Origin: Xylographa opegraphella
Lineage: Eukaryota
Assembly (NCBI GenBank): GCA_022813865.1
Contig: JALDZX010000057.1
Coordinates: 62,001-126,000, forward strand
Direction: 5' to 3'
Length of the DNA: 64,000 nucleotides
The notes under the pieces are model-generated. The model was not told where the DNA came from, made no database searches, and saw only the letters and a list, made by a program, of their open reading frames with translations. Of the stretch, positions 56,745 through 59,109 are shown piece after piece. A program made the position numbers and the translations under genes. How positions within the stretch are numbered: the first letter of the stretch is position 1; each line of letters begins with the position of its first letter.

Positions 56745-57534
56745 CATCGAAAGTCCACAGGCGGTGATCTCAGCGGAAGCAGATAGGTGGCAGGGTTTAG
56801 ATCAGAAAATCCGTGTCTTTCGGTAGCGGCGAGACGTTAGGAAACCGCCAACAACTGGTCATCGGCATGGGTCCCTGCAATCCCTGTTTGAATACCTGAG
56901 TACTGTACTTCGGCACAGGCGCCAGTCACGATTTGTCTATGAATTTTCTTTGCTTTTGCATGCAACTATGTTCACTTTGGTAATGACTTTCCCTTTGTAA
57001 TTGCGTGCGCGCATGTTTGGACATTCGCTGGACGATTCCGAGCAGCCAGACGTCGTGTATCTGCCATAACGGCCTCCTAGACCGCTATAGATGAACAATT
57101 ACGTCTGCTGTGAAACAGTTCAGGATTTGCTAGTGAATATGATTGTAAATGCCCCTGAAGTAAAGTCACCACCTCGAGGTCCACACAGTCCATAGTCGTC
57201 CAGCGCTGCACGAAGTAATGCGAGCTCCTTCATAATACAAGCTCCCTCGTATCTCGGCAGCCTCGGTGCCTCGTCAATTCAATGGCGTCATCCGGGTCTA
57301 GACCGAGGCTTTCGGACGAGCTGTCTGACAAATTTGTTAAGCAAGCTGCTCCAAACCTGTACATATTTGTCACAATAAATAGACTGGGCTAAATAGCTGA
57401 AGTCCAGAACCACATGTGGTTCCAGAGGGAGGATTGAGGGATTCGAACAGCGACACCTTAACTATCGCCCACGTCATTGACATTTTGAGTATAAATTCTA
57501 CACCGCATCGCCGCCATCTCCAAGAGTAGTCAAA

Positions 57535-59109
57535 GTGTCTTCCTTCAATATTCTTCGCTTGTTTGGCGCCGGTGCTCGTACCAAGGCCTCAGTAAGACTT
57601 GCAGCGGTCTCGAGACAATTCTCTTCTTCAAGCTCCGCAATGGCACCCATACATAAGGAGTGCGACTACTTAGTCATTGGAGGCGGCAGTGGGGGTTTAG
57701 CATCCGCTCGTCGAGCAAGCGGCGTTTATGGGGCAAAGACGATAGCTATAGAGAGTAACCGTCTTGGTGGCACCTGTGTCAACGTTGGGTATTATTCCCC
57801 AATCCCCTATACCCCGTACCCTCGCTGACACAAGGCCAGTTGTGTTCCCAAGAAAGTGACATGGAACGCTGCCGCTATAGCAGAAACCATTCATGCAGCA
57901 AAGTCATACGGCTTCTCGGTCGAGACTACCGCGCCCTTTGACTGGAAAGCCTTCAAGCACAAGCGAGATGCTTACGTGAAGCGATTGAATGGCATCTACG
58001 AGAGGAATCTCGATAAGGACCACGTTGAATACATCCACGGCCGAGCTCGTCTCACGTCTCCTGATTCCGTCGAAGTCAAGCTGGACGATGGCTCCACCAC
58101 TACCGTCAAAGCCAAGAAGATCCTCCTAGCGACTGGCGGGCATCCTACCATCCCAGAGGGCATCCCCGGCTCTGAGATGGGAATCACCTCGGATGGCTTC
58201 TTCGACCTCGAAACGCAGCCCAAATGCGTCGCTCTCGTCGGCGCCGGCTACATTGCCGTCGAGATGGCCGGTATGTTCAACGCCCTCGGTAGCGAGACTC
58301 ACCTCTTCATCCGCCACGAAACCTTCCTCCGCCAATTCGACCCCATGATCCAGGAATCCATCACGAAAGAATACGAGCGCCTAGGCATCCACATCCACAA
58401 AAACTCCAACCAAACTAAGTTCGAGAAGAACACCGAAAAGGGCGGCGATTGGAAAACCCTTCACTACACCGACAAGGAGCATCCGGACGGCGCAACCCTT
58501 GACGTCGAGTGCCTTCTCTGGGGCATTGGCCGCTCGCCGGAAGTCGAGGACCTCGGCCTCCAAGCGGCAGGCGTCAAGCAAGGCAAGAAGGGCTATATCA
58601 TGGCGGACGATTATCAGAACACCAACGTCGAAAATATCTACTCCCTCGGCGATGTCTCCGGGAAAGTGGAGCTCACCCCGGTCGCCATCGCTGCGGGACG
58701 GAAGCTCGCCGATCGCCTGTTCGGGGGCCCCAAGTACAAGGACTCGAAGCTCGACTATACCAATATCCCCTCGGCGGTGTTCGCGCACCCGGAAGTGGGC
58801 ACCATCGGGCTCAGCGAGCCGGAGGCGCGGGAAAAGTACGGGGACAAGAACATCAAGGTGTATGAGAGTGACTTTACGGCAATGTACTACGCGATGATGG
58901 AGCCAGAGGAAAAGGCACCGACGAAGTATAAGCTGGTGTGCTACGGGGAGGAGGAGAAGATAGTGGGCATGCATATCCTGGGGGTGGGAAGCAGTGAGAT
59001 ATTGCAAGGGTTCGGGGTGGCGATCAAGATGGGTGCGAGGAAGAGCGATTTTGATAGCTGTGTCGCGATCCATCCGACAAGTGCCGAGGAACTGGTGACG
59101 ATGAAATAG
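57535..59109 (+). CDS. glr1: Glutathione reductase; cytosolic start ATG 57640, putative mitochondrial isoform from GTG 57535
   Basis: [11 protein letters not shown] (FAD binding), [13 protein letters not shown] redox disulfide split by intron 57789..57839, VGAGYIAVE (NADPH binding), [10 protein letters not shown] and [12 protein letters not shown]. Confidence 0.97.

Follow-up and report, generated by a model that had tools for sequence, protein, structure and literature searches.

The glutathione reductase (GR) locus of Xylographa opegraphella raises the question of how a single gene could supply the enzyme to both cytosol and mitochondria, and whether a codon other than AUG starts the mitochondrial form. 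The locus lies in the analysed stretch of 64,000 nucleotides (the window), whose numbering is used throughout, features being on the plus strand unless otherwise indicated. Matches to Pfam Pyr_redox_2, Pyr_redox and Pyr_redox_dim identified the gene product as GR, and its FAD-binding, NADPH-binding and dimerisation domains, its CxxxxC pair and its sequence identity place it among class I flavoprotein disulfide reductases. The short (cytosolic) form begins at the ATG at 57640 (GCA-ATG-G, hereafter the second Met), and its first exon (57640..57788) carries the start of the FAD-binding region and the first redox cysteine. Removal of a 51-nt intron (57789..57839; GTATTA ... CTGAC ... CAG), which the CxxxxC redox motif straddles, joins it to exon 2 (57840..59109, up to TAG; Pyr_redox_2 and Pyr_redox_dim) and yields a protein of 472 residues, as compared to 472-473 residues in eight named Xylographa models. 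Exon 2 is 95% identical to the GR of Xylographa pallens (Lecanoromycetes), with which it grouped at a support of 1.00 in the tree.

One full-length GR gene was found in the organism's own genome (G000), the other matches being 26-31% identical or a 51-residue relic. A second GR gene serving the mitochondria was rejected, as the genome search gave only this 3' relic; by inference, mitochondrial GR would have to derive from the gene described here. The relic (L005:1501-1660, i.e. G000:C112:198823-198975) is a frameshifted stretch of about 51 residues with 56% identity, and the remainder of its gene was not found at the L005 locus. On the 5' side of the GR gene, two overlapping open frames of 157 and 152 residues (55894-56367 and 56286-56744, plus strand) lack any Pfam match and show no evident connection with GR; they probably belong to a single gene that contains an intron or a frameshift. 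On the 3' side, a 21-nt unit is present in about three tandem copies in the intergenic DNA at 59730-59790.

The first-pass annotation had proposed that a mitochondrial isoform starts at a GTG upstream of the second Met, and its landmarks were found to be exact: the last in-frame stop 5' of the GR frame (TGA, 57478-57480), a TATAAA (57490-57495), the GTG (57535-57537, in TCAAA-GTG-TCT) and the ATG at 57640. Between the TGA and this ATG there are 53 open codons, none of them an in-frame ATG, and the 35-codon extension (57535..57639) contains five Arg/Lys and no Asp or Glu. GTG 57535 is the 5'-most in-frame near-cognate codon, followed by ATT 57550 and TTG 57559. As 53 open codons are expected by chance in about 8% of cases at the local composition, the open frame alone is weak evidence, and it is conservation that lifts it above chance. 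No hairpin that could aid initiation was detected downstream of the GTG (z of +0.93 in the window; z below -2 in 1 of 14 leaders).

Orthologous leaders, the alignment of which had been proposed as a check, were drawn from one metagenome scan that gave 54 loci, the best 24 of which (L006-L029, 56-75% identity) were examined, the other 30 being at or below 53%. Five of these loci were excluded: two cut before the start (L022, L023), one distant (L028) and two with a further upstream ATG (L025, L027). The remaining 19 represent 13 distinct leaders with a readable start, or 14 with the window. At the position homologous to GTG 57535, ten of the 13 carry CTG and three ATG. All ten CTG codons are in frame, with A at -3 and no in-frame ATG back to a stop or the contig end, so that A at -3 is found in 11/11 near-cognate starts including the window, whereas all three ATG starts, from Leotio- and Sordariomycetes, have a pyrimidine there. 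A weak codon in a strong context and a strong codon in a weak context would be leaky either way. The residue at this position is limited to Leu, Val and Met, i.e. to NUG codons, and GTG is seen only in the window among the 14 leaders, the 13 relatives being non-Xylographa.

The preference for CTG is peculiar to the start site: it is used there in 10/10 CTG leaders, as compared to 3 of the 42 other leucine codons in the same extensions. These leaders represent approximately six independent lineages, over which the product of the gene-wide CTG frequencies is 1.3e-5. A frame-blind search used a start motif drawn from these same leaders, although the frame was not taken from them; it gave a single hit for every leader, in frame in 11/11, at six distances (87-141 nt) that are all multiples of three; the start is at codon -35 in the window, in three CTG leaders and in two ATG leaders. 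Identity by codon position is 0.56/0.75/0.43 in four extensions of equal length. Close relatives differ within the extension by indels of 3, 9 or 12 nt or none, and upstream of the start codon by 1-nt indels. An in-frame stop precedes the near-cognate codon by 8-18 codons in 6/11 leaders. Global DNA alignments of distant leaders showed scattered non-triplet gaps despite equal lengths, which were put down to alignment noise and left out of the counts. Coding-type conservation downstream of the codon, with stops and 1-nt indels upstream of it, thus bears out the proposal of a near-cognate start for a presequence, and the CTG bias, context, frame and conservation suggest that the codon at 57535 and its homologues serve as a start rather than as an ordinary leucine codon.

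In a FastTree phylogeny (111 sequences, 416 columns) with a weak root (support 0.07 and 0.82), the CTG leaders fell with Lecanorales-type names, Pleopsidium and clusters containing Friedmanniomyces and Cladosporium, L019 being unplaced, and the ATG leaders in a Leotiomycete/Sordariomycete clade. L019 encodes a divergent GR in which CTG has the same context; its contig is gene-sized and intronless, and the 91 nt upstream contain no ATG. The CUG start would be old if L019 belongs to an early-branching lineage. In L025 and L027, of the Dothideomycete clade, a further upstream ATG precedes a long extension, and AAG-TTG or AAA-GTA stands at the old start site, which suggests that CUG was lost once an AUG had been gained.

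An AUG-bearing upstream exon spliced into this frame, which had been named beforehand among the observations that would count against a GUG start, was searched for at the DNA level. The scan of the window gave no model with a YAG acceptor and a single one with a GAG acceptor, at chance level, in which translation would begin at ATG 57091 or 57139, pass from a donor at 57145 (or 57133) to the GAG ending at 57489 and read the GTG as an ordinary valine. This model is formally in the GR frame and has a branch-like TTGAC at 57476, 13 nt before the acceptor, but it requires an intron of about 350 nt as well as the GAG, and GAG acceptors are rare in fungi. Models of this sort arose in 105 of 1000 shuffles, and the same scan found them in 0/10 CTG relatives (three of which have less than 400 nt upstream). 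L007 has no AG at all between the stop and the CTG, and the invariant CTG would be left unexplained; splicing of this kind is accordingly given very little credence. A variant with an intron at 57489-57535, which would itself create an ATG, has an AAG acceptor and no branch-like word.

Translation of the extension mainly from the second in-frame near-cognate codon, ATT 57550..57552, would give a 30-residue presequence and reduce the GTG to what is left, weakly used or silent, of an ancestral CUG. The ATT has A at -3 and would lie 15 nt further from the cap, and L012 has ATC at the same place; L014 and L018, however, whose extensions are equally long, lack a near-cognate codon at -30. Such codons are not conserved as a set across relatives. 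The window retains the full AAA-NTG-TCT context, and among near-cognate codons initiation is in general most efficient at CUG and GUG (PMC5666671). The ATT may be a minor start, its role as the main one being improbable. Slightly less probable still is that this species no longer translates the extension and retains it as a relic, with GR confined to the cytosol or reaching mitochondria by another route. The roughly 8% chance of such an open frame is compatible with a relic, and the argument for expression in the window is a comparative one. The extension has nevertheless kept its start context, its R-10 spacing, its lack of acidic residues and its length, which equals that of Lecanoromycete relatives codon for codon, and no second full-length GR that could serve the mitochondria was found in the genome. 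Initiation at GTG 57535 is retained as the preferred reading.

Protein models lead in the same direction. Out of 462 proteins collected, a recognisable GR start is present in 356; 101 begin at the second Met and 247 have at least 20 extra residues. K[LV]S, the peptide counterpart of the start site, occurs in 30/66 long extensions whose expected interval has no Met (mean of 2.0 and maximum of 10 over 1000 shuffles) and in 11/177 Met-bearing ones, both fractions being biased upwards by protein queries that carried the motif. The claim that standard annotation misses the extension was found to be correct for Lecanoromycetes: in each of the 43 named GR models examined from this class, the second Met is the first residue. 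The same is true of 6/6 models of Lichinomycetes in the wide sense, 18/22 of Dothideomycetes, 4/16 of Leotiomycetes and 0/23 of Sordariomycetes, three named rows being left out as partial, cut or mislabelled. One query favoured extended models; in an unbiased search, Leotiomycete models were extended in 4/6. Database models of 43/43 Lecanoromycetes and 18/22 Dothideomycetes hence record the cytosolic form only. In P0022, P0035 and P0040, of a clade near Verruconis, a K[LV]S/P motif is accompanied by an upstream Met that seems to be conserved and stands some 60 residues ahead of the second Met; this upstream Met may be a product of the gene caller.

The composition of the extension, which is homologous to the Met-started extensions of Leotio- and Sordariomycetes, is that of a matrix presequence: with 35 residues, a net charge of +5, no Asp/Glu and 29% Ser plus Thr, it agrees with the net-positive, acid-free, Ser/Thr-rich pattern of 20-60 residues. 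All 14 leaders are acid-free, with net charges of +4 to +6. Its hydrophobic moment of 0.73 does not stand out from composition shuffles, 7.4% of 500 reaching it; amphipathicity is reached by less than 5% of shuffles in 3/14 leaders, and AUG-started homologues score no higher.

The R-x-F-S cleavage-like motif noted in the first-pass annotation is present and could be refined to a complete R-10 motif (57613..57642), with R at -10, F at -8 and S at -5 relative to the Ala that follows Met 57640. The R-10 motif is defined by removal through MPP and then Oct1/MIP (PMC7996597), and the R/F/S of the window agrees with the corresponding substrate pattern (R-10, F/L/I-8, S/T/G-5). MPP is predicted to cut after the residue that follows Arg 57613-57615, and the Oct1 octapeptide (57619-57642), beginning with Phe 57619-57621, would end in the second Met. 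The predicted mature mitochondrial GR would hence begin with the same residue as cytosolic GR, and neither size nor N-terminal proteomics would reveal an isoform with an identical mature N-terminus. In 13/14 leaders an Arg stands at a distance of exactly ten residues from the residue following the second Met; of the 247 extended proteins, 191 have R at -10 and 167 the full R-10 motif. The genome of X. opegraphella (G000) has two M3 peptidase genes.

Whether GUG initiation alone sets the mitochondrial share of the enzyme, as had been claimed, depends on where transcription starts. The TATAAA at 57490..57495, a candidate TATA box, lies 45 nt before the GTG. In A. nidulans, TATA boxes are mostly found 30-45 bp before the start site, which is usually at CA (PMC4046813). 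This spacing would put the start site near 57520-57535 and the cap 0-15 nt before the GUG, with starts near 57522-57532 at 3-13 nt. Efficient start selection usually needs a leader of more than 20 nt (PMC7049704), so that behind so short a leader initiation at the GUG may be infrequent, or may take place on a longer transcript. The claim thus stands as to the near-cognate start, whereas the predicted 0-15 nt leader leaves the GUG not established as sole control; start-site choice may share control of the mitochondrial/cytosolic ratio.

In a stronger form, and compatible with two starts on one gene, the GUG would be a start but the choice of transcription start, and not leaky scanning alone, would set the ratio, a short TATA-driven transcript being mainly cytosolic and a longer one mitochondrial. 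The position of the TATAAA relative to A. nidulans spacing favours this, as do TATA-like words at a similar distance (-62 to -27) in 6/14 leaders (one AUG-started) as compared to 0.85 in shuffles, the pattern having been chosen after the data were seen; for the isoforms of human GSR, regulation at the level of transcription has been suggested (10.1101/2025.03.27.645657). Such a word is absent at that distance in 8/14 leaders, however, and a non-AUG codon in a strong context is mainly sensible if one mRNA gives both forms, as separate transcripts could use AUG. This version is regarded as possible, with the odds somewhat against it. Upstream of the TATA box, two TGACAAA words and one CACGTCA word lie at 57326-57332 (plus strand), 57366-57372 (minus strand) and 57470-57476; we take these to resemble Yap1 and ATF/CRE sites.

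Taken together, it is very probable that the single GR gene makes its mitochondrial form from the GUG start by leaky scanning. Some scanning ribosomes would start at GUG 57535, a weak codon in a strong context, and give a 507-residue precursor with the 35-residue presequence, and most would bypass this minor start and begin at AUG 57640, giving the 472-residue cytosolic GR. After import, MPP and then Oct1 would remove the presequence and the octapeptide in the matrix, leaving both forms with one and the same N-terminus. This would explain how GR reaches the mitochondria in lichen fungi and many Dothideomycetes, a route otherwise missing. The split between AUG and CUG/GUG classes at one homologous position is also a natural experiment on the trade-off between codon and context. 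A more speculative extension, considered rather unlikely as a whole, is that this trade sets the mitochondrial GR share across Pezizomycotina, weak-context AUG in Leotio- and Sordariomycetes standing against strong-context CUG/GUG in Lecanoromycetes and many Dothideomycetes. The near-cognate codon just behind a TATA-defined start site would then be a regulated valve, and stress such as lichen drying and rewetting would shift GR between cytosol and mitochondria via start-site choice or initiation stringency. Since the mature forms would be identical, such stress-regulated partition would leave no trace on gels.

Outten and Culotta are said to have reported in 2004 that S. cerevisiae GLR1 uses two AUGs. 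The likeness to the present locus is that of one GR gene with alternative starts and mitochondrial and cytosolic forms, as PMC11653698 also describes for yeast; the difference is that both yeast starts are AUG, whereas the upstream start here would be GUG (CUG in relatives). Human GSR likewise has two start sites (10.1101/2025.03.27.645657). Mouse mitochondrial Prx V, from which MPP and MIP yield the N-terminus of the short form (PMC7996597), is similar in having an R-10 motif so placed that the MPP plus MIP/Oct1 product equals the short form, starting with Ala, but it is mammalian, has two AUGs and has been shown experimentally.

The use of near-cognate codons for mitochondrial isoforms is itself already established. 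PMC5666671 and PMC7049704 describe such 'DualNCC' genes, among them yeast GRS1 (UUG) and ALA1 (ACG; both PMC5666671) and those for Cryptococcus LeuRS (ACG) and ArgRS (AUU), and several exchanges of weak AUG and near-cognate codons in fungal aminoacyl-tRNA synthetase genes (PMC7049704). Conserved near-cognate starts are also described for Pezizomycotina cpc-1 (PMC5487733), Ustilago pgd1 (PMC7214817) and many yeast genes (PMC6582344). The cryptic non-AUG mitochondrial pool of yeast includes Trr1 and Hyr1/Gpx3 (PMC6582344 and PMC5368413), redox enzymes that, as proposed here for GR, gain a mitochondrial form via near-cognate initiation; that pool is, however, of S. cerevisiae only, and GLR1 and glutathione are absent from the main text of PMC6582344. 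In a largely non-subscription literature, fungal GR was nowhere found to be described as starting at a non-AUG codon; the supplements of PMC6582344 and 10.1101/2025.03.27.645657 could list GR, and 'glutathione reductase' is absent from one supplementary file of PMC7049704.

The closest parallel is with the DualNCC synthetases. These share with the present locus an in-frame near-cognate codon upstream with no AUG back to the stop, a presequence before a good AUG, a codon and favourable context kept beyond amino-acid need, and exchange of weak AUG and near-cognate codons between lineages. They differ in being tRNA synthetases of yeasts and Cryptococcus established by experiment, the present case being a redox enzyme of lichen-forming and Dothideomycete fungi approached by comparison. 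The GTG at 57535 is thus judged to be a real and well-conserved feature, with the sequence-level marks of a near-cognate start of the GRS1/ALA1 kind.
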